NCBI RefSeq assembly: GCF_018977255.1
Contig: NW_024704743.1
Location: forward strand, 18,850,001-18,914,000
DNA from: Callorhinchus milii
Taxonomy: Eukaryota
Direction: 5' to 3'
DNA: 64,000 nt
Shown: piece by piece, positions 1 to 64,000 of the stretch
Layout of the letters: each line of letters starts with the position of its first letter
Numbering within the stretch: position 1 is the first letter of the stretch
Position numbers and translations under genes: made by a program
Notes under the pieces: generated by a model
The model's input: the letters and a program-made list of their open reading frames with translations, nothing else
Database searches by the model: none
What the model was told of the DNA's origin: nothing

Positions 1-3000
1 TGACACACTCTGGCTCAGAAGCATTGAGCTGGAGTGTGAGTTAGACACACTCTGAGAAATAAGGAAGCGGGAGGAATTTCTGGATAGTTTTATCCTGAAC
101 TTGGTCGCACCCCATAGGAAAGCACAGGTACAGGAAGGGGAGGGTGCTACTGTCAGTGAGCAGAGTAGTGGAACCTTGGAGAGGAAGAGAAGGAGGTCCC
201 ACAGACACTGGTACTGTTGTATTTGATTCCTGTGAGCACAAGGAGAATGACTGTGTGAAGGAGAGCCACAATGCAAACCAAGGCACAGTGGAGCAGAAGG
301 CTGTCCGAAGCAGGGAAGAGCAGGTTAGAAATATAGTTGTGATAGGGGATTCAATTCTTAAGGGAATAGATGGCATCCTCTGTACCCAAGAACAAGAGTC
401 CCGAAAGGTGTGTTGCCTACCTGGTGCCAAGGAAAGGACATCTCGAAGCAGCTGAAGAGAAATTTGCAAATGGGAGGAGGCAGATCCAGTTGTCGTGGTC
501 CATGTTGGGACAAACAACATAGGAAAAAAACAGGAGGAAGTCCTGCAGAGGGAGTTTCAGGAGTCAGGAGCTAAATTAAATGACAGGACCTGAAGGGTAA
601 TAACCTCTGGATTGTTACCTAAACCACGTGCAAATTGAAATAGGGAGAAACAGATTAGGAACGTTAACATGTGGTTAAAGGATTGGTGTTGGAAAGAAGG
701 GTTCCACTTCACGGGACACTGGCACCAATACTGGGACAAGAAGCAGCTGTATAAATGGGATGGATTCCACGTGAACTGGAAGGGGACCCATGTCTTAGCG
801 GAAAGGGTAAATAGGGCTGTGGCAAAGGCTTTAACTAGTAAAGGGGGGTGGGAAGGAACAGAAGGAAATGACTCAAGCCAGACAAAAGTAAGAAATAAGG
901 AGAATATAAATGGTCAGGGAATTAATACAATTATAGAAGTGTGAAAAGACTGTCAAAAATAAAATGAGAGGAACAATTAATAATAATAAAGTAAACTGTC
1001 TGTACAGCAATGTGCACAGCCTCTGGGGAAAAAAAGGATAACCAGAGGCAATAATTCGTAGTGAGGAACCAGATATAATTGGGATTACTGAAACATGGCT
1101 ACAAAAAAGAATAGGACTGGAAATTAAACATTGTAGGGTATGATGTATTTAGAAAGTATAGAGATGGGAAACAGGGCGGTGGAGTAGCTGTACTTGTTAA
1201 GGATAACATCACGGCAGTCGAAAAAAGGGACATAGCCAACAGTAAGATAGAAACAGAATCTGTGTGGATATTGATAAAAGATAAGAAGGGATCAATCACA
1301 CAAATAGGGGTACTCTACAGACCACCTAACAGTGGAAGGGGGGTAGAGGAAGAAATATGCAAGCAAATTAGGGAAATGAGTAAAAGACATAGATTTCAAC
1401 TCCCCCCAAATAAATTGGCTAGAAGAGGTAGATAAGGTGGATAAGGGAATGGAGTTCCTTCAATGTGTACATAACTCCTTTCTTACCCAGTATGTAAGCG
1501 TCCCAACAAAGGGGAAATCCCTGCTGGATTTAGTAATGGGAAATGAACCAGAGCAGATGAGAGAAGTATGAGTAGGGGAACATCTAGGCAATAGCGATCA
1601 TAACTTAATAAGGTTTAAGATAAAGACTGAGAAGGACATGAGTATGATAAAGGGCAGGACAATAGATTGGAAAAAAGGTGATTTTGAGGGGATGGGAATG
1701 GAACTTGGGAAAATAAACTGGAAAACAATATTGGCAAAAAAAAGAGATAGAGCAGCAGTGGGAAACATTTAAAACAGTGATCAATAGAGTACAGGAGAAA
1801 TATATTCTGCTAAAAAGTAAGACAAAGCTAAATAATAATGAGACGCCATGGATGAATAAAGACATAAGGGCAAAGTTGAGACTCAGAAAAGAGGCGCTCA
1901 CTAAGTATGTAACCAACAAGGGAGAGCATAACAAAAAAGAATACAAAAAGGTCAGGAAATTAGTCAAAAAAACAATTAGGAAGGCAAAGAGGAATTATGA
2001 AATTATCAAGGAATATAAAAAGAAATAGTAAAATATTCTACAGACATAGAAATAACAAAAGAAAAATCAAAATAGGAATAGGGCCACGAAGGAATGGACA
2101 AGATAAGCTCACAGTCCACGACAGCGAAATGGCAGAGAAATATGAAATAATTACTTTGCCTCAGTATTCACCAGGGAGATGGATCAGGTGGTCATGACAG
2201 CAGAAGACAATGAAAATAATATAAATTCATTTAAGATACAAAGGGGAGATATAATCGAAAACTAATGAAACTCAGAGAGGATAAAACCCCTGGCCCAGAT
2301 GGATTACATCTGCGGATTTTAAAAGAATCGAGGGAAGTGACAGCAAAGGCACTATTACACATATATAATAACTCATTAGAAAAGGGAGTAGTGCCAGAGG
2401 CCTGGAGGATAGCTAATGTTATACCTATATTTTAAAAAAAGGGACATAGAACAAGCCCAGGGAACTATAGACCTGTCATCTTAACATCGGTGGTAGGAAA
2501 GCTAATGGAATCCTTATTGAAGGAGGTAATAGAAAAACATCTGGAAACGGAAAACATAATAAAGAACAGTCAGCACAGATTTCAAAAAGGAAGGTCATGC
2601 TTGACCAACATCACTGAATTCTTTGAAGGGGTAACAGAAAGAGTAGACAAGGGTAATGCGGTAAATTTAATATATTTAGATTTCCAAAAGGCGTTCGATA
2701 AGGTACCACATAATAGACTAATGAACAAGGTCAGAGCATTTGGAATCGGGAAAAATAGCAGAATGGCTAGCAAGCTGGCTACAAAACAGAAAGCAGAGAG
2801 TAGGGGTACAGGGTAGCTACTCAGACTGGCAGGGGGTGGGCAGTGGGGTTCCACAAGGATCGGTATTGGGACCACTGTTGTTCACAATATACATTAATGA
2901 TTTGGATTCGGGAATCAGCAGTACAATTTCAAAATTTGCAGATGACACCGAATTGGGGGGAATAGTTAATACAGTTAATACAAAGTCCTATAATTCAGTG

Positions 3001-4185
3001 GTTAGAGCACTCGCCTTGCAAGCGAGACACCTGGGTTCAATTCCAGGCAGGGCGAAACCTTGGGCAAGTTTCCTTACTCCACACGCATAATAATAATCCC
3101 TCCAAAACAAAAACAATAATAAATTGGTCATTTTCAATTCACAACTGTTTGTGGGACACAATGTGTTTGTGCGCAATTGGCTGTGGCGTTTTGTCTACAA
3201 ATATACAATCAATTCACTTTACAGTCTATTCTGTGAAGCGCTTTGAGATGTCTAGAAGATGTGAAAAGCGCTATATCAAATCCAAGGATTATTATTATTA
3301 TTAGAGGAGGCCTGCAACAAATTACAGCAAGACACAAATAAACTTGCTGAATGGGTATTTAAATGGCAAATGCATTTCAATGTAGAAAGGTGTGAGGTGG
3401 TACATTTTGGTAGAAGGAATAAGGAAGTCACATACATCCTGGAAAATAAAAACCTAAATGGGGTAGAGGAGCAAAGAGATCTAGGGGTACACATACACAA
3501 TTCGCTAAAAGTAGCAACGCAGGTTACTAAGGCCATAAAAAAGCAAACAAGGCATTGGGGATCATTTCTCGAGGGATAGAATTGAAAAGCAGGGAAGTTA
3601 TGGTAAATTTCTAAAGAACCGTGGTTAGACCACACTTAGAATACTGTGTGCAGTTCTGGTCCCCACATTACAGAAGGGGTATAGAGGTACTGGAGAGGGT
3701 GCAAAGGAGATTCACAAGGATGATCCCAGAACCCATCAGGAAAGGCTGAACATACTTGGACTCTTTTCTCTTGAAAAGAGGAGGGTAAGAGGTGACCTGA
3801 TAGAGGTCTTTAAAATGATGACAGGTTTTGATAGAGTAGACATAGGGAAGATGTTTCCACTTGTGAGGGAGACCAAAACCAGAGGCCGTGAATATATAAA
3901 ATAGCCACAAATAGATCAAATAGGGAAGTTAGAAGAAATTTCTCCATGAAGAGAGTAGTGGGAATGTGGAACATGCTACCACAAGGAATTGTTGAGGCAA
4001 ATAGCATAGATGTATTTAAGGGAAAGCTAAATAGTTACATGAGGGGGAAAGGAATAGAAGGTTATGCTTGAAGGCTTAGTTGAGGAAGGGCAGGAGGAGG
4101 CTCATGTGGAGCATAAACACCGGCATAGACCAGTTAGGCCGAATGGCTTATTTCTGTGCTATATATTCTAATGTATTCTAATGTA
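1..4185 (+). mobile_element. Near-full-length, decayed CR1-clade LINE (continues off the left edge), with ORF1 SGNH-esterase and ORF2 APE endonuclease plus reverse transcriptase, both frameshifted
   Basis: ORF1 motifs: IVVIGDSILKGID (~331-370), VVVHVGTNNIG (~490-523), DGFH (~759-770). ORF2 endonuclease motifs: DIIGITETWL (1072-1101), YRPPN, SDH (~1593). RT motifs: [41 protein letters not shown]-terminal RDLGV and [17 protein letters not shown] motifs. CR1-type 3' end with (ATTCTAATGT)x2 at ~4165-4184. Confidence 0.95.
2983..3303 (+). mobile_element. Family-B tRNA-SINE (short variant) inserted into the CR1 RT region
   Basis: tRNA-like head with A/B boxes, Deu-like 3' body and (ATT)n tail. CR1 coding sequence stops just after SKFADDT and resumes at ~3304. 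Confidence 0.92.
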
Positions 4186-9340: not shown

Positions 9341-9849
9341 AGATTGCCACAGAGGATTGATTCAATTCTGACAATCCGTTGATAAACACTTCAGCTAGTC
9401 AAGCCTAGTATGTTTCCCCTCACCCAAGGAGGACAGTCACTATATTGTCATTTGATATCCACCACACGTAAGTTTAAGCCCTCACTACGTACATGTCTGG
9501 TGGTGGTGGGTAACAATAACGGTGTACAACAACAACAAAATTACATTTGTATAGAGTCTTTCACATCGGGAGGATGGTGACCAGGCACTTTACCAATGCA
9601 AAGCACCACTCTAACTGTAAGCATATTGACTTACTAATTCTTGCATTAATATAGCGCCTTTATTGGGAAGAGGTCTCAAAGCTCCTCAAAGGATTTATTG
9701 AATGTATTGACTCCATTCTGTAGGTGAACACAGCAGCCAATTTGAAGTGATTGATCCAATTTATTTGGTAATTGTTCTTACCTGAAGAACTCGCTTCTGT
9801 AATAAGCATTTAAGAATGTTACATATTATGAGGGACCCATAAAAGACCA

Positions 9850-10230
9850 ATAATAATAATATTTATAATAATCTTTGCATTTGCTATAGCTCCTTATCAC
9901 ATCTTCAAGATGTTTCAAAATGCTTCACAGAATATACTGTAAGTGAATTGACTGTGTATATTGTGGGCGAAACATGGCGTCCAATTGTGCACAGCAATGT
10001 CCCATAAACAGTTATGGATCGAGTGATCAATTTTTTTTTGTTTTGAATGGATTATTACCCCCAGAAAAGCAATCTGCTTATAGACTAACAACCAGGTTCC
10101 TACTTACTGTTAGATAAACAGAGGCTTGCGGAGTAAGGAAACTTGCCTAATGTTTCTCCCTGCTTGGGAATTGAACCCAGGTTCTCTCGTTTGCGAGGGG
10201 AGTGCTCTAACCACAAAGCTACAGGACTCC
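9850..10230 (-). mobile_element. Family-B SINE, full length, long variant, followed 3' by a flank shared with the 44.8 kb copy
   Basis: Head ends ...acaggactcc (10230), tail (AAT)n at ~9850-9880. Confidence 0.92.
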
Positions 10231-11307
10231 ATAAGGCTGTCCAAGGTAGCTCACCCTGAATTTTGCTCTTCCTCCCAAATCTGACATGGGCGTATCGGCA
10301 TTCAGTAGCTGACAGCAGACTGAATTCTTCTCACTTGTGAATAGGCATCAGCCTGGCTCATTTAATTGCACTCTGATTCAGAAGCTAGTGTTGGCAAGTC
10401 CCATATTGGAACTTTGAACTGTGGGAAACAAGCTTATCAGAAAGCTCAAAAAAACATCCTGGATCACCATCGAGGCAACGTAGAAATATTGGATTAATAA
10501 AACGTCTATTTGCATGAAAAATAAAGGGAGATTCATGAAACACTGACCCACAGCTGATGCCCTTTCCCCAGGCACAAGCATTGTGGCAACACTGCATTCA
10601 CATATAACTTGCAATCTCATGGTACTGGCTTCAGTTACCTCAGGGTTGTAAAAATATACAGGTAAACTCATATAAGTCATATCAGTCGGGACCGTAACAT
10701 TTAATCTGATTTACATGAGGATTCTGTACCTCATCAATGCAGCCGATGATGCTAGTTAGGGGATGACTTGTATTAAGATTTAGGATTATTTGGAACTAAG
10801 ACATCATTACGATTTAGTCGTTTACCCGACTTGTAAAATATGACTAGTGCAAAGAAATCTAAGCGATTTTTCTGTAGGAAACTGAATGGGACTTGGACAC
10901 GTGTATAATATATCCGGTAACACGATTTATAACAACTTATCCAAGTTTGCCTGCATTCTCTGAATAAATAAAATATATTTTACCTTAAGTTAATCAACTC
11001 ACTTTCAGCATCAACTCAGCTACTGATGCTTTCTCTAAAACAATACAGACTAATTACAATGTGTCTGTCAGTTCATTATAATGAGAACCAAGCAAGCATA
11101 AAACATACATTTTATGCCTAAAAATTAAACTGTGAAAACTGACTTTTTTTTTGCTGTTATTTTTTCACAGATAGGGGTTGTAATTGTAATTTCTAGACTT
11201 AATTCAAACTGCTTGCTGTCACTTTAGCAATTAATTTTCAACAAATTTCCCCTGCCTTCTTCTAGCCGATTATAACTGAGAATTCTTCTCACTTGTGAAT
11301 AGGCATC

Positions 11308-11584: not shown

Positions 11585-12870
11585 AAGTTTACAAAGAATG
11601 TACTGGCCCAATTGTCCTGGTCTTTTTACTGCACATGAGTCCTCACCCATTCTTAACTACCTCCCATGCCCTTTTATTCCTATCTCCTTCATGTATAGCT
11701 TCCTCTTGAATGTACCTGTCCTATCTGATTCAACCATCGCTTTAGATAGCGAATTCCACAATCTCACTACTGTCTGCATGAATTACTTCCTACTAAATTC
11801 TCTTTTAGATCCCCTAGTCGCTATCTTATATTTGTGTCCCCGGTTACAGACTCCGCAACCAGTGGAAACAGCCTATTTATGTTAACCTTATTGAACCCTT
11901 TAGTAATTTTAATACTTCTATTAGGTTCCACCATAATCGTCTCTTCTTTAGCAAAAAAAGCCTTACTTATCCAGTCCATCCTGATAGCAGTAACCTGCCA
12001 TATTTAGTTCCATCCTTGTAAACCCACTCTGTACTATTTCCACCACTGTTGTATACTTCTTATAGTTTGGAGAACAGAATTTGACAAAATACTCCAAATG
12101 TAGGCCAACAAAGATTTTGTATAAATTTAACATGACCTCCTCATTTTATATTCCAACTCTCAGGCTATAAAGCCTAAGACCCTCAATGTTTTTTTTCATA
12201 GATATATCCACTTGTGTAGTTACTTCTAGAGATTTGTGGATCCCCAAATCTCTATGCTCCTCTACTCCTCTTAGGTTCTTACCATCTAGACTATCAGCAA
12301 CTTCTTTATTTTTCCCTCTGAAGTGAATTACATTAAATTGCATTCCTACATTAAAATTAATTTGCCGTCTATCTGCCCATTATAATAATAATAATCCTTG
12401 CATTTGATATAGCGCTTTTTACGTCGGGAGGACGTCCCAAAGCGCTTCACAGAACACACTGTAAAGTGAATTGACTATATTTGTGGGCGAACTCGGCAGC
12501 CAATTGCGCACAGCAATGTCCCACAAACAGTCGTAGATTGAAAATGACCAATTTATTATTGGTTTTGGAGGGATTATTATTAGGTGTGTGGAGTAAGGAA
12601 ACTTGCCCAAGGTTTTGCCCTCTGCCTGGAATTGAACTCAGGTCTCTCGTTTGCAAAGCGAGTGCTCTAACCACTGACCTACAGGACTCCGCAACTCCAT
12701 TCTGCTAGCTTGTTTATGTCTTCCTGTGTTCTTCTATTATCCACTTCACTGTTTATCATGCTCCGCAGTTTGGTGTATTTGGTGCAAATTTTGACACCGC
12801 ACCTCTTATACCTGACTCCAAATCATTTATGTGTATGCTGTATAATAGCAGCCCTAACATGTGATCTAAA
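11585..12870 (-). mobile_element. CR1 LINE 3' fragment, split by a family-B SINE
   Basis: Minus-strand peptides LGLLLYSIHINDL...VSKFA and MQFNVIHF...GVEEHRDLGIH are homologous to CR1 ORF2 at 2860-3520. Confidence 0.88.
12383..12690 (-). mobile_element. Family-B SINE, young short variant, full length
   Basis: Near-identical to 57961-58282 and 63418-63727. Its tail carries the L2-type ctccc loop. Confidence 0.95.
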
Positions 12871-14193: not shown

Positions 14194-14262
14194 ATGGTCC
14201 ACAGCGACATGTCCAAAACGCAAGAGATACAGCTGGGGCTGCTGGAGAATCCCAGCATGCAG
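14194..14262 (+). CDS. CACNB2: CACNB2 coding exon 1 (beta-2d-type N-terminus), MVHSDMSKTQEIQLGLLENPSMQ
   Basis: Matches the recalled human beta-2d start MVQRDMSK...QEIQMELLEN. It is 69 nt long and ends at a strong phase-0 donor CAG|GTAAGG (GT at 14263). Confidence 0.93.
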
Positions 14263-14353
14263 GTAAGGCTGCAAACTGTGCCTCTCAACCTGCATCTCTC
14301 TCTCTCTCTCTCTCTCCCTCCCTCCCTCTATTTCTCATCTGCACATTGTACTG

Positions 14354-14393
<40 letters not shown>

Positions 14394-16405
14394 CACTCTG
14401 CAGCTCACCCCCACAACCCCATCCCCACAACCCCCAAACCCCAGCCGGAGTTTCCATCCACTTTGCCACTTGCTGCGGCTTCGCTTTGGGGAGCACGTCC
14501 AAGGCTGGACCTTTAAAAAGAGTGGACGTGTGTCCGAAAGGGCTCTTGCCCGTATTTAGTTGTTATATGTGAAAAGCGCGATATCAAATGCAAGGATTAT
14601 TATTATTATTATTATATTATATTAATCATCATCATCATCATACTGGCAAATGTGTCCCCGAGGCATTTGGGAAGTCAGGGATACTCCTGGTGTGTATGAA
14701 GATGCCTCGCAGGGAACTTTTTCGAAAGGATGGCAGTGAGGGTTTGGATGAATCCTTCATTGCACAGCAAAAGCTGGTTGCTGGGTTGCAAGCTCACCAG
14801 CTACAGGCTCACTGCCACACACAGTGCCTTATAGTCCAGCAGAGCATCTTATTGTCTAAGGTTGTTGTTCTTTAATTTTGTCTGCAGTTATTTTTTTTTC
14901 ACATCCAGTATATTGCAGTGCTCCTATCCGACCGGAAATTTGGAAATGTGCCTCACACATTATTGCACTAACCCTGAGCCTCTCACAGTTTGTACATATT
15001 TCTGATCCTAATGAGAATGCAGATTTTTTTAAATTGATTTTTCGAAAAATTATTTTTGAATGATGGAGAGGGGGGTGCTTAAGGGGGGGAATGACACGAT
15101 ATAGAATTGGACCTTGTACACAATATTGTACACTGAAAGATGTATTCTGCATTAATAATACCTAAATCATGAGCTAAATGAGCACACATTTAGTTTCATT
15201 AAACCTTTTGTTTTATATAGAAACAGAGGGTTTTGGAGTACCATCCTCCACTGTGAACCATTGTGGTCCATCTGATTGAACCCAAAGTAAAGAAGAAACC
15301 TATAATCTTACAACTACTTTACCTCATGTTATCCCACAGTCAAGTAATTCTGCCAAGTTGCTAGCAAATTCTCCCTTGAATTGTCTGACACTATCTGCCT
15401 CCATTGCTTCCCTGGTTGGTCTATTCCACTTATCCGCTATTCTACTTGTTAATATAATTAAATCTGAGCTATATGTTCACCCTCCTGAGCTTTTCCATGA
15501 GTGTCACCTTGTCCCAGGTTTTTTCACCATGTTAAATATTTTTGAGCATTTTAAACATTGTCACTAAAATATTTTATTTGACTCTCTTTTTACAACAGGC
15601 AACAGAGTATCATCAGTCCACCCTACACACACATTGCTTGTGTAATGGTTTTACTGTGACACCTCTCTTGCTTGGATCCCAGAATAAAATAGTTTGTTAA
15701 AAAAATTATCCGGGGATGCAGAATAAAGGAAAAAATGACCAGCGTTCAACTTTCTTATAAAATATACATTTCACTTAGACAGACATCCCCAACAGCCAGA
15801 AACAAATTTTCAGAATTTTTAAAATGATTTGCACAGGGATTGTTTTATAAAGTGATTACTTTGTGTGAACCTGTAAGCATTTTATTGTCTTGTGCATGTT
15901 TGCTCCATTACTTTTGTGGGGATCAGGTTCCTGGAAAACCGAACCGGTTATTGTTTGATTAAATAGTTTGATTTTCGTCTCGATTCTAATTCAGAACAGT
16001 CCAATCTGATTTTGTTGACATATTTATTTAAAAATTTCACGACTTTTAAAGGAAAGAGTTGTTTGTGCCTAATACTGTTGATAAATAATATCTTGAATAT
16101 CTTGGGATACAAGTTTGGGACATGACCTGTTAAGCGACTGCCAGGATGCTGGAAGGTGAACTGGATGGACCTTGGTCTTTCAAATTCTTATGTTCTTGTG
16201 TTTTCTTTACAAAATCAGCTTCAGTGTATTTTATAGCTGAATGTTGCTATAAGAGGCTAGAAATTAATGCAGATGTTAAAATTTCCGATAGCTTCACTTC
16301 TCAAATATACACCTTGCTTTTTTGTTGTTTTTACCTAATTGTAATAGTAGTTAATGTGCTAAGCTCCAGAAAACATAATAATCTTCTTGTCGTTTTGTCC
16401 TGAAG
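14263..16405 (+). other. CACNB2: CACNB2 intron 1 (2143 bp, GT-AG, phase 0)
   Basis: Donor gtaagg. Acceptor atcttcttgtcgttttgtcctgaag. Joining the two exons keeps the reading frame. Confidence 0.9.
14295..14397. repeat. (CT)n and (CA)n microsatellites at the start of intron 1
   Basis: (CT)n at ~14295-14317 and (AC)n at ~14355-14396 seen directly. Confidence 0.95.
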
Positions 16406-16498
16406 TCTTCCGGAAGAGGCGCAATAAGGAAGAGCAGGTTTAAAGGGTCTGATGGTAGTACCTCATCGGATACCACATCTAACAGCTTTGTGAGACAG
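16406..16498 (+). CDS. CACNB2: CACNB2 coding exon 2, [31 protein letters not shown]
   Basis: 93 nt, phase 0/0, AG acceptor and CAG|GTAAGA donor. [21 protein letters not shown] is the CACNB2 form (CACNB1 has RFKRSDG). Too short to appear in the ORF track. Confidence 0.97.
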
Positions 16499-17716
16499 GT
16501 AAGATGCTGGTTAAATTCTCCAATTGTTTTTCGCACATCACAGTGTCTTACTAGTAACGAAACAATAAACTGTAATAAACGTTTAAGCACATTTAATCGG
16601 CGGCAAGCTTGTGATATCAAAGATGTGAAGTGTGAAATTTTGCATTTCGTATTTCACTTCCACTCAAATTCGCACATTCCTAACCATGGGTTACAGCTAT
16701 CCGTGCAGAGGCAGTGATATATTAAAGAGTACCTCCTGTGGAATGCACATTTTATGTTATAACATCAGAGAATAAAGGTAATCCTTCATTACACAATATT
16801 TATGAAGGAATTGGAAAAATAACAAGAAAAACCTTTACGAGGGCTCCTTATTTCAATGGTGTATTTTTCTGGTGAAATTATAAATGGTACAGGTATAGTT
16901 CTAATGTTACCGTGATGTTACCTTGTAAGACACAGATCCCGAAATCTATTTCTTTGATTTCTTTTGGAGTTGTGATACTACATTTTTACGTTGGTCTCTA
17001 ATGATTACAATTTTGGTAGCAATTCATCCCAACCATGTACCATTAGGAAGAAGTAATTTCAGGAACAGTGTGCTTGCATCTGACACAGTATAAATAAACA
17101 AAATATACATCTGGCTACAGTACAGCATGAACACACTGGGTGTAACTAACACTGGGATCTCCCTTCAATGATGTTCTTTAATAACATTTAAAAACAATGT
17201 TATGTTTCAGTGCAAAGGCTCACATGCTCAGAATAGCAAATAATGATGTTTTGATTCTATGAAAGAAAAGCAGAGTGGGAAATGCTGGTTATAGCCCACA
17301 GTCGTACAGTACTGAAAGTGGTGAGATAACTTTGCTCCTGGTAGTATTAACTGCAGCAGAATCAATCCTCTTCATTTGGTTTGGATACCAATAAAGTTCG
17401 CACAACAAATTGCCTTGTGTGATATTTGGCAGAAACCTGTATTTGCATGCCACATGGGTATTGGCAGAATAATGTCTACATCTAATAAATCCCACAAGAA
17501 TAACACTGTTTGTAACTTTGAATGGGTGAACTTAAATTATAAAGTCATTAATCATGACATTCTTTCAGACCTAGCTGTAACTTTCACTGGGGGAGGTTAG
17601 ACATCACTCCTGCTTTTTAAAGAGGAAATATAGGGAAACTTTACCCCCAATGAAGAAATATTGAACCACTGAAATCATAAGCTAACAAACCCATTGGTCA
17701 TTCTGTCAATTCAGTC

Positions 17717-26426: not shown

Positions 26427-28358
26427 GGAGCCCTGTAGCTTAGTGACTAGAGCACTTGCCTTGCAAACGAGAAGACCTGGGTTCAATTCCCAGCAGGGTG
26501 AAATGTTGGGCAAGTTTCCTAACTCCACACATGTCAGTTTACCTCGCAATAAGTAGGAACCCGGTTGTTAGTCTATTGGTGGACCCGGGGGAAATAATTC
26601 CTTCAAGTGAATAAAAATAATTTGGTCACTCAATCCAACAACAACAACAACTTGCACTTATATAACGCCCTCCACACAAGGTAGCATCTCAGAGCACTTA
26701 ACAGTGGCAGAGCCTGATTCCGAGCGGGGGTGGGGGTGTGTGGATGTACGGTTGGACGGTCAAAGAGGAAGATTTTCAGGGGAGAGAGGGGGCAGGTGGA
26801 GGGATTGAGGGAGAGTGTTCCAGAGTTTCAGGACATAGTGGCTTACAGCGGAGGGTGTGAGGGATGAGCGTGAGGCCGGTGCCAGTTGAGTGGAGGCGCC
26901 TGGTGGTGTAATGCGGAGTGAGGAGAGGTGGGGAGGTGCCAGAGAGTGAAGGGAGTTGAACACGAATGTGAGGATCTTGAAGTTGATCCGTTCTGTGATG
27001 GGGAGCCAGTGGAGCTTGGCCAGAACTGGTGAGACGGGGGTATTGAGTTTGGTCTGGGTCAGTATGCAGGCTGCAGAATTCTGAATGAGCTGGATTTTTT
27101 AAATAGTGGAGCTGGGTAGACTGTTGAGGAGTGTGTTTGAGTAATCCAGGCGGGAGGTGACAAACACACGCACGAGAGTTTCGGCTGCATTTGGGGTAAC
27201 GTACAGTCGGAGGCGGGCAATGTGGCGGAGGTGGAAGAAGACGGTCCTGGTCAGGGACCGGATGTGGGGTAGGAAAGACAGTTGGGTGTTGAACCAGATG
27301 CCTAGATTGCACACTGGTTTGGTGAGTCTGAGGGTGAGCCCAGGGAGGTTGTGGAGCACAGAACCGCAAGAGTGAAGACATTGACGGGAGCCAAGGAGTA
27401 TGGCTTCTGTCTTGTCCACATTTAGCTGCACTCATACAGACCCTGACGTCTGCCATAAAAGCAGATAGAACATCAGCACACCTGGAGTTGATACTACAGG
27501 AAGCAAATTAGATTTGTGTGTCATCCGCATTTATGTGGATGTTACCCCGCGTCTGTGGATGATATCGACATATAGATAAGGAAAAGAAGAGGGCCAAGGA
27601 TGGAGCCCTAGCGTACCCTGCAGATGACCAGGCGGGGACGGGAAGAGAAACCATTTGCCGAGATGAAATGGAGGCGGTTGATTAAGTAGGATACGAACCA
27701 TGCGAGTGCGGTCCCATTAAGGTGAATGAGCGAGGAAAGGCGGTGGAGGAGGATGGTGTGGTTGACTGTGACGAACGCGGCAGAGAGAACCAGGAGGACG
27801 AGGAGGCAGAGGGAGTCCTAGTCACAAATAGAGAGGACCTCGTTTGTGACTTCGACAAGCGCTCTCTGCAGGGGCTCGAGGTGGGAGTGGAGTTAGAGGT
27901 GAAATTGACATGCAACAAGGAGTTCCAAGACTTTGGCAAGGAAGGGTAGGTTGGAAATAAGATGGTAGTGTGAGAGATTAGAGGGATCAAGAGTGGGTTT
28001 TTTAGGAGGGTTGTGATAACAGCGGTTTTCAGGGGGAGTGGAACAGAGCCTGAGGAGAGAGACTGGTTGATTGTGTCGGCCAGCAGGGAGGAGAGGAGGG
28101 GGAGTTGAGTGACTAGCAGCTGGGTGGGGAGGGGGTCGAGGCAGCAGGTGGTGAACTTCATCCGGGTGATTGTGGTTGAGAGGGAGGAGGGAGAAATCAT
28201 CCATGACTGTTTGTGGGACACTGCTGTGTGCAGTTGGCTGCCCTGTTTCGCCCACAAAATATGCAGTCAATTCACTTTACAGTATATTCTGTGAAGCACT
28301 TTGAGACGTCTCGAAGACTTGATAAGGCGCTATATCAAATGCAGGGATTATTATTATA
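26427..28358 (+). mobile_element. Family-B SINE (long) split in two (26427-26637 and 28199-28358) by an L2 insertion
   Basis: The 5' half ends ...ggtcactcaatcca and the 3' half starts atccatgactgtttgtggg. Confidence 0.9.
26638..28198 (-). mobile_element. L2 LINE 3' fragment, 1.56 kb, with decayed RT
   Basis: Minus-strand peptides PLKTAVIT, ISNLPFLAKVLE, LNVDKTEAILLG and FVTSRLDYSN. (AAC)n tail at 26638. Confidence 0.93.
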
Positions 28359-28454
28359 TATTATCCTGATGTGAAAGCTTTGTATCAAATGCAAAGATTA
28401 TTATTAAAGTTAGTACACTGGCTCCTCATCAGAGAAATAAGGTAATATAATGAC

Positions 28455-44427: not shown

Positions 44428-44837
44428 TTCTTTGATTCCAGTGTTAGCATCGAGTAGTGGTATCAGGAAGATCTGGAATAGAATTGTAAGTCTGAATCTT
44501 GATCAGTTTAGGGTCTGAATATTTCTCCAGAGATGGGAGACTTCTAATAAAATTGAAGTGGCTGGTGGGAACACTGCCCAATATTTATCGGAAAGGAAGG
44601 GTTGGATTCTTTCCAGGGCCCATGGCACTCAAACCTATTTGAAAGGATGAGGCATGCATTGGGTATCCAGCTTCATTGGAACCTAATAATTTATAGCAAA
44701 ATGCAAAGAGAAAGGTTAAGGCTGTATTTCTGTTTCATTGTGTTGGGACATGTTTACATTTTGAATACTGTGTGTGAACATTAGCAATAGGACAGCTTGC
44801 ATCGTCTGCAACAGAAAGTTATATCTGAGGGCATTGT

Positions 44838-45210
44838 GGATTACAGTAGCTTAGTGGTTAGAGCACTCACCTCGCAAGCGAGAGGACCTTGGTTTGATTC
44901 CCGGGCAGTAAGTTTCCTTAGTCCACACTCCTCTGTTCACCCAGCAGTAAGTAGGAACCCAGTTGTTAATCGATTGGCAGATCGCTTTATCGGGGGTAAT
45001 AATCCCTTCCAATAAATAAATAAATAAATAAGAAAAATTTGGTCGCTCAATCCATGACCGTTTGTGGGACACTGCTGTGCGCAATTGGTTGCCGTGTTTC
45101 CCCCACAAAATATACAGTCAATTCACTTTACAGTACATTCTGTGATGCTCTTTGAAACGCCTCGAAGACATGATAAGGCGCTATATCAAATGCAAGAATT
45201 ATTATAATTA
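44838..45210 (+). mobile_element. Family-B SINE, long variant, with a shared 3' flank and a second tail (to ~45375)
   Basis: Full SINE. 45214-45335 is the reverse complement of 9729-9850. Confidence 0.9.
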
Positions 45211-45662
45211 CTATTGGTCTCTGTAAGTCCCTCATAATATGTAACATTCTTAAATGCTGTATTATAGAAGCAAGTTCTTCAGGTAAGAACAATTCCCAAA
45301 TAAATGTAATCAATTACTTCAAATTAGCTGCTGTGATAAGGCGTTATATCAAATGCAAGGATTAGTATTATTATTGGACAAACTGTGACACCTTAGATTT
45401 ATGACTGGGCAGCTAAGTGACACCGAATCCAACCAGCGTATAATAAAGCAATGTGTGCACAGAATTAAATGCAAACCACACAGAATCGTAGAAATGTATC
45501 TGACAGAACAAGGACATTTAACCCAATGTGTCTGTGCTGGCTCTGTGAAAAGGCAATCCATTCAGTCCTATTTACCTGTCTTTGCTCTGTACCCTGCAGA
45601 TTAGCCTTCTAAGTGTGACTAAAAGCAATTTATAATTTGGGTTCTGTATTTCAAATCAACTG

Positions 45663-52016: not shown

Positions 52017-55000
52017 AGTAGGTCGGAGGACAGCCTGAACTTTTTCCAAGAATGCAATTATAATGGATGGTGCAAATAGCATCAAGAGGCATCAGTTGTG
52101 TGTCTGCAAAGTGTGTAAAGGGAATTGACAGACAGCAGGGTCAAGAGCTCTTATAAAAGTATGATCCTGTTGGTTCCTATTAACGTTTCCTGTTCCGAAA
52201 CAATCTTGTGACCACTAACTATAAAAACAAGCTGCTGTAAACGGACGTTTTTTTCAGCTCATTGATCTATTAGGCTTCTTGGTTTTTTTTGGCCTGTAGC
52301 ATATTCTGTTCCATTAATCACCCATTTTTGCATAGAAAAAAGCTTCAATGGCATTTTTTAGTCCATGCATGTTAATTGAGAATAAGATGATGCATCATTT
52401 TACTTAAGTAAAACATATGCATATGGCTAACGCGATTAATGTGGTGTCTTGATGGCTACCTAACAATGTTTATGTTTTGTATAAAGGAAAGTGCATACGG
52501 TGTTTTAAGGGATTACTTAACTTGAGCTACAGACTCTGTTAACATTATCTGCCCTGTACAATGCTGAGGCTTAGAACTGCAGTAGCACTGCAAATCTTAC
52601 TAAGAATGCTTTTTGTGTCAACAGCGAGATTTTCTGTCGGTAAATTCAACCTGCCCTTGATGGATAGATCTGAAAACAAGCGCTTCACTTGTAGGTTATT
52701 TAATACTTATAAGAATATGTGTATACTTGGAGTGCACCTTCAATGGGTAGACCCAGATGACATCTGCAGTCATGCAAGATAATGGACCTGGGACAGACAG
52801 GATAGTGAGACACTGAATAAAATGCTGCCAAAAAGAACTTTAAAGTTGTTTTTGGCTCCTACATTAAGAATAACCAGAAATCAGAACCAGGAATCTGAGC
52901 CAAAGGAAGAATAGACAGCATTCATGTCAATTGATGGTACTGGCTATTAGTTATAAGGAAAAATTAAACTACAGTATGAACAACTTCAGCATAAAAATAG
53001 AATATGTATAGAACAATAGGTTATTCATTAGATAAACTGTTAACCTTAAAAACATGGGCAGCAATGCTTAGTCTCCCAGTGTCGCCCAGATTCAAAGGAA
53101 GAGTAAAATATAGGCTGGAATGGGTATCACAATATTCTATTGAGTTTTGTTACTGAAAATTGGAATACAGGGAGAATATTTCAGTGTGCTTCCTGTCCAA
53201 CATGCCTGCTTGCTCCTTTCCTGCTCAGTTTCCTCTAGGTTGCTGTTCAACAACATGATAAGACACTATATCAAATGCAAGAATTATTATTAACCTGTCT
53301 CCCTATCCCACTTTCTTCCATAAGTGCTTTGGGACGTTCTCCCGACGTGAAAAGCGCTATATCAAATGCAAGGATTATTATTATTATAATCAGCCCCTCA
53401 AAAATGTCTCCTTTCACTGTTCGGCAATCACTGCTACACTAAGTCAGAAAATGGGACCTAAATGGGAATCGCCGTAGTAGTAGTCTGATCCATTCCCTAC
53501 AGTAAGATAGATTGTACAAAAGAAGGAGTGGAAACTGGCAGTTCAAGTAGAGAGGAAAACAGAGAAGGTAATCAGTGAAGGGGAGACATTGGAGAAGAGA
53601 AGGATGTTGGAAATCAGAGACATAGAGGGAAGGGGGAAGCGAGGAAAGCAAAAAGCAAAGTAAAAGAAGAGGGAATAAATAAACAGCAGGTAAGCGAGTA
53701 AGTGACAAGAAGCAAAAATAAATTACAGAAAACGAACCAAGCTAAGGGTAATTTTTAAATAGTATTATAACAAATCACTATTGAAAGAAATAAAATGAAA
53801 ATGGAAGCGTATTTGTTTTATACACTTTATTTAGTGTGCTTGCCAAAATATAAACAGATGCTAACAGAGCAATGTTCCAAATGAACTTGCAAACTCATGT
53901 ACTTTCACACCTGTGGAATAACCCCAGACCACATTGCAGTTAGTATTGTATCCGGTTTCCAATGTAAAATAGATTTCTGTGTTTGTGTTTGTTTTGTAAT
54001 GCCATCCGCTGTAGTGACAGGTTCTGACTAACAGAATCAATTGTACTTACAGTATTACACCACCTAAATACTGGCTGCTTTCAAAATAAATCACAAGCAG
54101 ATTATTATATTCTCGACTGTAACTCATTGCATTTTCATCAAATTTATTGATGTAACCTGGAATTTTGGCAACTTTGGTAAACAGCAACAACAAATTACAC
54201 TCATATACCAACCTTCACGTTGGAAAGCGGACGGAGCAGACAAACTGATTTGGGGTTAGGAGGGTGGAGAGGTACAGGGGAGCAAGACTGTGAAGGGCTT
54301 TGAAGGTGAGAACGAGGGTTTTCTACTCGATTCTCTGAGGGAAGTGAAGCCGAGCAAGAACGGGGGTGATTGGTTAAAGTAAATCTGTCTAGCATAAAAC
54401 TGATAATTTAAATATTGTGAATACAGTGTAGGCATTTACTGCGCACACAATAAGGGAAAAGTCCTTCCTTCATCGTCATTATTATTATGTTCTCAGTAGG
54501 ACCCGCTGCACAAGTTTCCGTTTTTTCAAAGCAGCTTCAAAACATGCCATACATAGAGTATCACCCTTTCAAGGGATACATTTTTTAAAAATTAGAACAA
54601 CAGTAATTTGTATTTATGTGCACTCTGGGATGCTATCCTGCGTGAGGAGTGTGATATAACTGCAAGTTGTTATTTTGTAGTGCCATTCACAAGGAATGGC
54701 ATCTAGGAGCACTTAGTAGAGCTTCCTACTGAGACTCCTGTATGTGCAAGCTGGAAGAGGAAGTGTGGAAAAAGGAGGTAAAACAAATGAATCACTGGAA
54801 CACGTTGCCAGGAAGTGTGGTTGAGGCCAGGACATTGGAACTCGTTATAAAAAAAATCGGCTTGATGACATGATGGGAATCTATGTATTTTGTAAAGATC
54901 AGATGGGCCGAATGGCCTTTTTCATCCAAAGCGATTTTGTGATCTTGTGATATTTAAAACCTGATGTACAATTACTGACTTAAGCCTGAATTAATTAAAA

Positions 55001-57960: not shown

Positions 57961-58282
57961 GAGTCCTGTAGCTCAGTGGTTAGAGCACTCGCTTTGCAAG
58001 TGAGAGACCTGAGTTCAATTCCAGGCAGAGGGCGAAACCTTGGGCAAGTTTCCTTACTCCACACGCCTAATAATAATCCCTCCAAAAAAACAAAAACAAT
58101 AATAAATTGGTCATTTTCAATCTACGACTGTTTGTGGGACATTGCTGTGCGCAATTGGCTGCCGCGTTTGCCCACAAATATACAGTCAATTCACTTTACA
58201 GTATATTCTGTGAAGCGCTTTGAGATGTCTAGAAGACGTGAAAAGCGCTATATCAAGTGCAAGGATTATTATTATTATTATT
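57961..58282 (+). mobile_element. Family-B SINE, young short variant, full length (best reference copy)
   Basis: A box TAGCTCAGTGG, anticodon-like loop TTTGCAA (Ala-TGC-like), B box GAGTTCAATTCC, Deu-like 3' body, stem-loop and (ATT)n tail. Confidence 0.96.
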
Positions 58283-59941
58283 AACGTCCCTGTGAGTTCT
58301 CTCCATCCATGAAGCACAGAAATTTACAGCGCAGAGGAGATCATTCGGCTCATCAAGTCTGTAACAGCTCTCAGAGCAAGCTGTCCATTGAGTTGCACTG
58401 CCTCAACCCTCCCCATTACCATTTTCACCAGCCGTCTATGCCCTTTACCCCTTCAAGTCTTTATCTTTCATATACGTGTCTAGTGCTACCCTGCGTAATG
58501 GGTGCTAATATAACTGCAAGTTGTTGTTGTTATTGACTAGTTATAGTGAACATTTGCCCCTGTAAGTAGTTCCACTTCACTAACTGGAGTACCACATTCT
58601 TAGCTTTCATATTATCCACCTCCCTTTTTGCTTTCCCAGTGTCCAAAAGGTGCTGAAATTGGACTCAATGCATGACTCATATGTGTTTGAGTAATAAATT
58701 GTCTATTAGCACCATTTTGGAAGAGGAAGTAGAGCTTCGCACTGTGGGAGCTGTGAATTTAACAGCAGGTTCCTTCCGCCAAACAAAACGAGAGTTAAAT
58801 TGCCTGTGCTGATTCTAAAAAGGATGGAATTGTATTTAAAAAGAAAGAACTTGCATTTTCCTAACATCTTATCACATCTGAAAGCAGTTCACTGTAATCT
58901 GTCAAGATTAGTATATTTTTTGTTATCATTTGCAATGGTCATTCTCCACACAGCAGGGTTGCATAAATTAATAATAATAATATAATAATATTGCCATGAG
59001 GTCAAAGACAAATACACCTGCAGAATTATTGGATCCACCTGAAAGATTCACCTGAAGGATCCAGCGCTTTGGGACGTCCTTCCAACGTAAAAGGCACAAT
59101 ATAAATGCAATTTTATTATTGTTGGCCAGCACACTGGGAAAAATTCCATCCTCTTTTCAAATAGTGTCGTAGGATTTTTAGCAAGAATAAGCTTTGGTTC
59201 ATTGTTCAATTTAAAGGTAGGAAGACTGTACCTAAACACTACCCATCATAACCTTTTAATTTTATTTTGAAGAACAATGATTGTTCTATGGTGTATTCTG
59301 TGTCAGTAGTACCATAGAAATTTACAGTATGGAAGAAGGTGCCTTGTCCCATTGTGTTGTGCTGGCTCTTTGAAAAAGTATTCTATTCATTCCTATTTAA
59401 CCTGCCTTTTCAACAATAACAACTTGTATTTATATAGTACCATTCAGGTAGAAACACATCTCTGAGTGTTTGTCTACACCCCTGCAAATTACTCCTTTAT
59501 AGATATCTATCTAGTTCTCTCCTGCAAGTGAATGTGAATTCTGCATCAACTTACAGTTCGGCATTTCACATCCTAACAACTCTGTAAAAAAACAACAAAA
59601 AAACATCCTAACCTTCCCCTTTTACTCCCATGTTAACTATAGAACTGTAGAAATTTACAACATTTACAACATAGACCATTCATAGGTTAGCAATTTTGGA
59701 TCTGATGCCACCTCAGTTGTTAAACTACTGTTAATGTTACATGTTAAACACAAAAACAATTAGTTACATTTGTATAGCGCCTTTCATGTCAGGTGGACAT
59801 CTAAAGGCGCTGAGACAAAATTATCTTTTGTCCCCATTATCAGAATTAATCTAAGAACACAAATCATTGGATGCTTATATCAGCTCTATTTTCAATTGTA
59901 ATCATTGGGATCTGCTTTGTGATTTGTGCAAATACATTTGT

Positions 59942-62710: not shown

Positions 62711-63417
62711 GTCTAGAATTTGAGGAATGTTAGTTTGAAAAGGACACCCTCAATATGTATAAACTTTAATTGAACAGAACATACATTGACATAATTTGGG
62801 TTGTGTCATTCCCATTCCCTAATAGCTATAGACATTCGTAAAGCATATGTAACAAGACATTCCATGTACTTCTCTGCCAAAGAAGTAATTAGAAGGTAAT
62901 TGAAATTTTGGGAACATTTAAAGGTGTATTTCCTTAAAATACACACAGTACTAAATTCTACAGGATTCTTTTTGACATAAAATACCAACACATTAATAGG
63001 AGTTCAATTCTGCCCCCACCCGCCTTGATTTCACTTGAAATAGACAGGGTTTCAGTAGTCCTACAAAATCCTATGCATTTTGGGTGCATTTCCATCACAC
63101 TCCAATAACTTATGGAAAAGGCTCCTAGGAACAGACTTGTAGTACCAAACACTGCACTGGAGAATACACAGACATAGGAAGAAACATTCAAAAATGTTTT
63201 TGGCAACACTTGCCTATGGTAAGTAGCTGCTAACAGAACTTTTACATATCTCCTAGTCTTAGTCCTTGCATTTGGCCATCTGCAGGATACATTGCCCCAA
63301 TGTTTGGAAGGTGGTGAAGTGTGCGGTGTTGCTGGATACAAATAAGACATCGTCAAGCTTATGTCACTGCAGAGACTGATAGGGAAATAAGATACATGAC
63401 CTGTCAATGGCACTTTA

Positions 63418-63727
63418 TAATAATAATAATCCTTGCATTTGATATAGCGCTTTTCACGTCGGGAGGACGTCCCAAAGCGCTTCACACTGTAAAGTGAATT
63501 GACTATATTTGTGGGCGAACGCGGCAGCCAATTGCGCACAGCAATGTCCCACAAACAGTCGTGGATTGAAAATGACCAATTTATTATTGTTTTTGTTTTG
63601 GAGGGATTATTATTAGGCTCTGTGTGGAGTAAGGAAACTTGCCCAAGGTTTCGCCCTCTGCCTGGAATTGAACTCAGGTCTCTCACTTGTAAAGCGAGTG
63701 CTCTAAACACTGAGCTACAGGACTCCA
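63418..63727 (-). mobile_element. Family-B SINE, young short variant, full length
   Basis: Near-identical reverse complement of 57961-58282, with the L2-type ctccc loop in the tail. Confidence 0.96.
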
Positions 63728-64000
63728 CAATTTGGCACTCAATCAGCCACTCAGTCCCTGGGGAAAAAACTGTACAGACGCTCTTAAAAATTCTGCAGTA
63801 GAAGGAGCTTCCAAGAGATGACAAAGCAAGAACATGTCCAAAGCCTACATTTGCCAAAGGTTGCTGTGAGGGAGTTAAGGACCTCATAAAGGCAGCATTG
63901 AAGTGAGGTCAGACAGTGCTTATCACTGGACCTCACAATGGGCTCTGCAAAACAAGGTTCTTCCAAAATCTGAGGGGAGACTGAGAGGGAGTCAGCCAAT

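Follow-up and report, generated by a model that had tools for sequence, protein, structure and literature searches.

The window analysed here, a 64-kb stretch of vertebrate DNA rich in SINEs and LINEs, carries on its plus strand the first exons (14195..16499) of a CACNB2-like calcium-channel beta-subunit gene, which serve as context only. Exon 1 (14195-14263), which we take to be such from its general likeness, and exon 2 (about 16407-16499) each end at a GT donor read directly at the exon end, and 16409-16486 resembles the beta-2 isoform 2c of PDB 8hlp_C (E 2e-6). Short motifs of later or alternative first exons were looked for in the 64-kb window and not found. The SINEs include a younger family with a tRNA-Ala head, which comes in a long and a short form and in this window diverges by about 9-17% from its own majority sequence. 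The other family is older and has its last 160-180 bases in common with the tRNA-Ala-headed one. Two long-form copies, 35 kb apart and in opposite orientation, are the subject of this work: copy B, about 4 kb upstream of the CACNB2-like first exons on the opposite strand, and copy A, 3' of exon 2 and presumably in the next intron.

Both bodies are full-length. Copy A (44834..45213, plus strand; first tail 45171-45213) is a long-subfamily, CmiSINE-like element by a profile match over the whole model and by alignment; ARAGORN places a tRNA-Ala at 44841-44912 in its head and Rfam a tRNA at 44840-44913. Copy B (9851..10234, minus strand; first tail 9901-9851) belongs to the same subfamily by the Rfam tRNA search, profile match and alignment. 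The Rfam search found nothing but tRNA-like heads. The profile of the old family also matches the 3' ends of both bodies (45031-45210 in A, 10038-9859 in B), so that each has a tRNA-Ala-derived head and a 3' end of about 160 bases in common with an older Deu-type family, as CmiSINEs do. A deletion of 14 bases behind the tRNA head (44908-44909) is private to A; B and the other copies keep these bases. A contig of a second organism (organism B, run X6) extends from 44479 as far as 44860 in the SINE head and differs at 34 of 368 bases; because it enters the head at the same place, SINE A is older than the split from organism B.

Other repeats lie around these two. Just 3' of A, 45494-45613 is another medium-copy repeat (contig depth 10^3-10^4), of which 45522-45583 matches 59348-59409 at 84% in a self-BLAST of the window. 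Decayed LINE reading frames at about 40-3600 (plus strand), presumably CR1-like to judge by their translations, hold a short-subfamily SINE at 2984-3303. Young short-subfamily SINEs at 57961-58278 (+), 63413-63729 (-), 12379-12690 (-) and 53322-53389 (+) are 3.7-6.6% apart. The copy ending at 63729 is possibly a mosaic, its 5' part being like that of the 57961 copy and its 3' part like those of the 12690 and 53322 copies.

A flank common to two SINEs

How alike is the DNA behind A and B? In the self-BLAST, 44838-45335 (+) matches 10230-9729 (-) at 78% (E 9e-123), and the flank by itself (45227-45335 against 9836-9729) does so at 91.7% over 109 columns (E 7e-40). Counted from the first base past the (ATT)n tail, 45214-45335 and 9850-9729 are identical at 109 of 121 aligned bases, and the flank core has a local score of 169 against a maximum of 24 in 500 shuffles. 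The first-pass annotation had reported the same flank of about 120 bp behind two SINEs 35 kb apart, and the likeness is real. It was right as well that the 5' flanks are unrelated: 380 bases from each side give a score of 21, the shuffle mean being 18, and 15% of 200 shuffles score as high. Homology thus stops at the SINE 5' ends and does not extend outwards as a segmental duplication would. Beyond the second tails, the DNA of A and B scores 17, as do shuffles (17). Nor is the flank a free-standing repeat, the other outcome that would have spoken against the annotation: it stands at single-copy depth (see below) and has no third copy in the window, where the next-best self-BLAST match has E 0.07. 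Among 44 SINE tails (946 pairs), A and B form the only pair with a common non-SINE 3' flank; the next scores listed among tail pairs (at most 68) come from copies with another SINE piece close behind.

The flank at A has two parts. The 5' part (45214..45262, matching 9850-9802 on the minus strand) is unclassified AT-rich DNA in which no SINE origin was detected by comparison with the old-family majority sequence (no better than shuffles, p 0.53). The 3' part (45263..45335) is decayed old Deu-type, SacSINE1-like sequence, scoring 42.6 against a maximum of 37.6 in 1000 shuffles, with no significant old-SINE likeness in its first 25 bases taken alone (p 0.18). The stretch without detectable SINE origin is the first 50-75 bases; the last 50-70 of the flank that had been called non-SINE consist of decayed old-SINE sequence. 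The reverse proposal, that the entire flank is a decayed old SINE, was rejected, as it fails for 45214-45287 (p 0.36). An internal deletion of 30 bases in the decayed old-SINE part is common to the flanks of A and B, which shows that the flanks have one origin.

At B, the flank (9729..9850, minus strand), the putative donor, is followed by the remainder of the old Deu-type SINE 3' end with a short decayed tail (9632..9728, minus strand). The old-family profile matches B at about 9744-9632 (E 2e-18), which bears out the annotation's older Deu-type 3' end downstream. Copy A differs at this point: 65 bases of B (9728-9664) are missing and its flank passes directly into a second tail (45333..45376) made of the last 42 bases of a long-subfamily-type SINE, that is, the 3' arm of the hairpin, the spacer and the ATT run. 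Both copies do end in a second SINE-type tail, as claimed, but not in the same one, B having an old SINE end and A the 42-base tail. Compared over 35 bases with five other long-subfamily tails, this tail of A has 2-4 differences, and it is nearer to such tails than to the second tail of B. The final GTG of the flank at A doubles as the start of the second tail, which begins exactly where the family reads GTG-ATAAGG.

Could these second tails be read by an L2 enzyme? The hairpin before the ATT run folds in two young copies and in the first tail of B. The second tail of A has no 5' arm and no loop, and its centroid structure is unpaired; the second tail of B does not fold into the hairpin today. 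The annotation's second L2-recognition tail is thus not borne out at either copy, in a comparison that reflects the present-day state only, the first tail of A having drifted too. Two smaller marks concern the tails. A TATAA break in the ATT run is found in both first tails and in 2 other tails, and ATTAGTA right behind the spacer is confined, among 42 tails, to the two second tails. Runs of four T are absent from A between 44834 and 45480, and three lie within the unit at B today. Further back-to-back tails and tail-only insertions occur in the window at 28199-28406, 53253-53387, 24774-24453, 13243-12971 and 14568-14610, and double tails are thus common in it.

A stretch of 15 bases within the flank, 45268-45282 (+) or 9796-9782 (-), lies between AG and GTAAG with a TGC just upstream. 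At A it is in frame and stop-free, reads KQVLQ and lies on the sense strand of the CACNB2-like gene. The motif has one match in 47.5 kb of plus strand and one on the minus strand, with a pyrimidine tract of 0.53. A microexon was set aside, the motif being post hoc, its pyrimidine tract weak and its position overlapping likely SINE-derived sequence; the stretch is probably due to chance.

Copy number and relative age

Is the flank repeated elsewhere in the genome? Contigs of 4 of 24 runs were aligned to 44454-45653 at 80% likeness, and the bin 45254-45293, wholly within the flank, was taken as the flank core. In X1, the best run of the window's organism (156,710 contigs aligned), the summed depth of this bin is 23.1; two unique bins have 18.2 and 21.2, and SINE bins range over 1.4e5-6.5e6. 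Contig depth is a rough measure here and not a copy number, and contig sets drop records. A single contig with B-type letters covers 45265 and 45272 in this run; cover of 44534-44653 and an A-type contig at 45265 are missing from it, and a few further copies could be missed too. In organism B (X6), the flank core stands at 47.7 against 44-54 in unique bins, and one contig crosses it with A-type letters at all three displayed sites, from what could be either locus. In organism C (X11) the depth is 14.5, with a gap in cover at 45259-45272 that proves nothing. A fourth run (X5), guessed to be RNA, covers the flank partially (5.95), which has no bearing on expression. A flank family of tens of copies or more would show in contig depth, and a handful could escape.

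Are the two bodies sisters? They differ at 56 of 327 sites. The A-B distance is 17.5%, A lies 15.7% and B 18.0% from another copy (c7853), and none of 200 bootstrap trees of 15 SINE copies (0%) groups A with B. The 13 ancestral CpG sites comprise 1 with the same change in A and B, 5 with different changes, 5 changed in one copy and 2 intact in both; these mostly unshared changes indicate that the bodies parted while their CpGs were nearly intact. The tree suggested by the first-pass annotation thus gives no pairing, yet an AU test of A and B as sisters does not reject it (p 0.28). The alignments show no sign that the bodies are sisters. The flank, at 12 mismatches in 121 (10%), is closer than the bodies (17%), a difference that is not significant with the untrimmed flank (Fisher p 0.074; non-CpG binomial p 0.066). 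A Fisher p of 0.012 was discarded as overstated, since it came from the BLAST-trimmed flank, and the untrimmed value is used instead. Two orders of events fit: copying of the flank later than the parting of the bodies, or copying of the entire unit from a newly inserted B.

Proposed repair copying and its rivals

What brought the same flank behind two SINEs? Our favoured reading, to which we give a probability of about 0.5, is that DNA repair acting between two independently inserted SINEs produced, in one event, a local duplication of about 120-160 bases present in two copies. What is observed is a flank common to A and B and low in copy number, outer flanks that are unrelated, second tails that differ and the GTG overlap; from these we infer the following course. 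A CmiSINE-like copy would have inserted at B, with a decayed Deu-type SINE end lying about 50-75 bases further downstream, and a separate copy would have inserted independently at A. Later, a break or stalled fork near the tail of A may have left a free end that invaded the homologous 3' end of SINE B. Synthesis would then have run through the tail of B and 122 bases of its flank, and the new strand would have rejoined A's own tail at the 3-4-base GTG/TGTG overlap. The flank would as a result lie between two tails, the second of which would be A's original tail. Judging by structure alone, copying would have gone from B to A, and the duplicated flank is probably inert.

Repair is favoured because there are two copies, close together, with bodies that give no hint of sisterhood, a common TATAA break and a second tail of long-subfamily type. 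The low copy number of the flank and its closer likeness than that of the bodies point the same way, as does the small chance, about 7e-5 per event for a genome of 0.95 Gb (the contig total), that a random insertion would fall within 35 kb. As in a templated insertion or a conversion, the donor is intact, the copy number low and the donor nearby, and homology or microhomology is present at both junctions, the SINE 3' homology on the left and the GTG overlap on the right, where 3 bases can match by chance. Several points weaken the argument. A windowed scan can show nearby pairs only, which lessens the weight of proximity, and the TATAA break, being present in two other tails, counts for less as well. 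The non-significant difference between body and flank, together with the AU result, speaks against repair, as does the distance, since conversion between Alu elements acts mainly within about 10 kb against 35 kb here. The confinement of ATTAGTA to the two second tails fits a second tail of A derived from that of B, in which case a separate 65-base deletion is needed.

The model of the first-pass annotation was a 3' transduction of the whole unit, in which a young SINE B was read through to the old SINE tail, the L2 reverse transcriptase started there and the unit inserted at A, the 65 bases being skipped or lost later. We consider this unlikely, though it has real points in its favour. The homology is bounded by the SINE 5' end on one side and an L2-type terminal repeat on the other, a part of the claim that stands and that repair predicts likewise. 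The ATTAGTA of the second tails is its strongest point, and further ATT repeats follow it at A, as template slippage would yield (PMC1636434). An A-like ancestor, with no T4 run in 44834-45480, could have been read through, and neither an equal age of body and flank (p 0.07) nor sisterhood is rejected. Against it, the bodies are no closer than other members of the family and share 1 of 13 CpG changes, so that positive signs of sisterhood are missing, and the sole daughter seen sits 35 kb from its source. The three T4 runs in the B unit today and the greater closeness of A's second tail to long-subfamily tails than to that of B do not fit either, and the hairpin lacks its 5' arm in the second tail of A and is unformed in that of B, a present-day comparison that decay blunts. 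The transduction has to accept a 65-base loss that removed the hairpin and a copying before any shared change arose. A capture linked to retrotransposition at A itself is about as doubtful. Here the ATT tail of SINE A would have served as the priming site for L2 reverse transcription, and the cDNA would have joined through tail homology, the template being either a fresh SINE RNA, cut short after 42 bases with a switch to B at the GTG, or an RNA from B. Its final structure would be the same as under repair, and it is in line with the window's other double tails and tail-only insertions (14568-14610, 28199-28406, 53253-53387 and 24774-24453). The new insertion must, however, strike the tail of A and also reach a template 35 kb off, and no target-site duplication is evident by eye at the outer junctions of A. 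L2-type elements often leave no target-site duplication.

The remaining two readings are far less probable. A relic of a larger inverted segmental duplication, its outer parts lost or overwritten, would account for an inverted pair at 35 kb; the likeness of the 5' and of the outer 3' flanks does not exceed that of shuffles, and the bodies, which differ more than the flank does, have no private marks in common, which makes it very improbable. Still less credible is an undescribed dimeric SINE subfamily of many copies, which the first-pass annotation had offered as its alternative. Two copies per 64-kb window are what a large family would give, and nothing else speaks for it. The flank core lies at single-copy depth in all three DNA-like contig sets (23.1, 47.7 and 14.5 in X1, X6 and X11) against 10^5-10^7 in SINE bins, which overturns the proposal, and the two copies have no common 3' structure, A being without 65 bases of B and having another type of tail. 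The main text of the work on these SINEs mentions no dimer, composite or transduction (PMC5499810). A dimeric family of tens of copies or more is largely refuted.

Under repair copying, a single local event matters little; it illustrates how dense SINE homology can relocate short flanks. It also calls for caution, as a common flank and two tails in one window are insufficient to call a composite element. We think it improbable that a stringent enzyme of the L2 clade started on the tail of an older, downstream SINE and so mobilised a read-through transcript together with host flank. Were it true, it would be a 3' transduction by machinery that usually requires a hairpin of its own, and the daughter would have landed 35 kb from its source. 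Given some 500,000 tail-sharing SINEs in such a genome, adjacent tails would then offer a constant path by which flanks are shuffled and dimeric SINEs arise. If it were also common, tail-sharing SINE families would let stringent L2 systems move host sequence.

Comparison with known systems

In 3' transduction by L1 and SVA, the element is followed by the 3' flank of its source and then by a second tail. Copy A has this order too, being an element with the 3' flank of another locus and a second tail. L1 recognises any poly(A), and transduced daughters are normally scattered and sisters of the source. In contrast, the second tail of A lacks the L2 hairpin, and neither scattering nor sisterhood of copies is evident. 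According to PMC1636434, L2-type enzymes need a hairpin and a terminal repeat.

The SINEs themselves resemble those described from the elephant shark, the CmiSINEs (SINE2-1_CM and SINE2B-1_CM) and SacSINE1-CM, whose partner LINE is L2-2_CM, the tail of which they use (PMC5499810). As in the main text of that paper, there is a tRNA-Ala head, two close subfamilies and a 3' end of about 160 bases in common with an older Deu-type family; the likeness is one by description and not by alignment to the published consensus. Unlike the double-tailed A, no dimeric, composite or transducing form appears in that main text, and a search of the open-licence literature (subscription journals and Repbase being outside its scope) found no composite or transducing form of L2-type SINEs.

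The event likely resembles a conversion tract or templated insertion between neighbouring SINEs, local, one-off and ordinary. PMC8230782 states that conversion between SINEs declines with distance and that Alu conversion acts mainly within about 10 kb. Like the non-allelic Alu conversion treated there, the event at A would be a copying among homologous neighbouring SINEs that left the donor intact; unlike it, the tract leaves the SINE into non-homologous flank and adds sequence, and spans 35 kb rather than roughly 10 kb. Templated insertions at double-strand breaks need contact between donor and acceptor, often with short microhomologies, as set out in bioRxiv 10.1101/2022.09.30.509517, where the 100-kb enrichment refers to donors near breaks and not to the distance between donor and acceptor. 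The insert at A resembles these insertions in its class of size (100-250 bases), in its probable origin at another locus and in its short junction microhomology. It differs in that the breaks described in that text were induced in human cells, whereas here one end would enter through long SINE homology.
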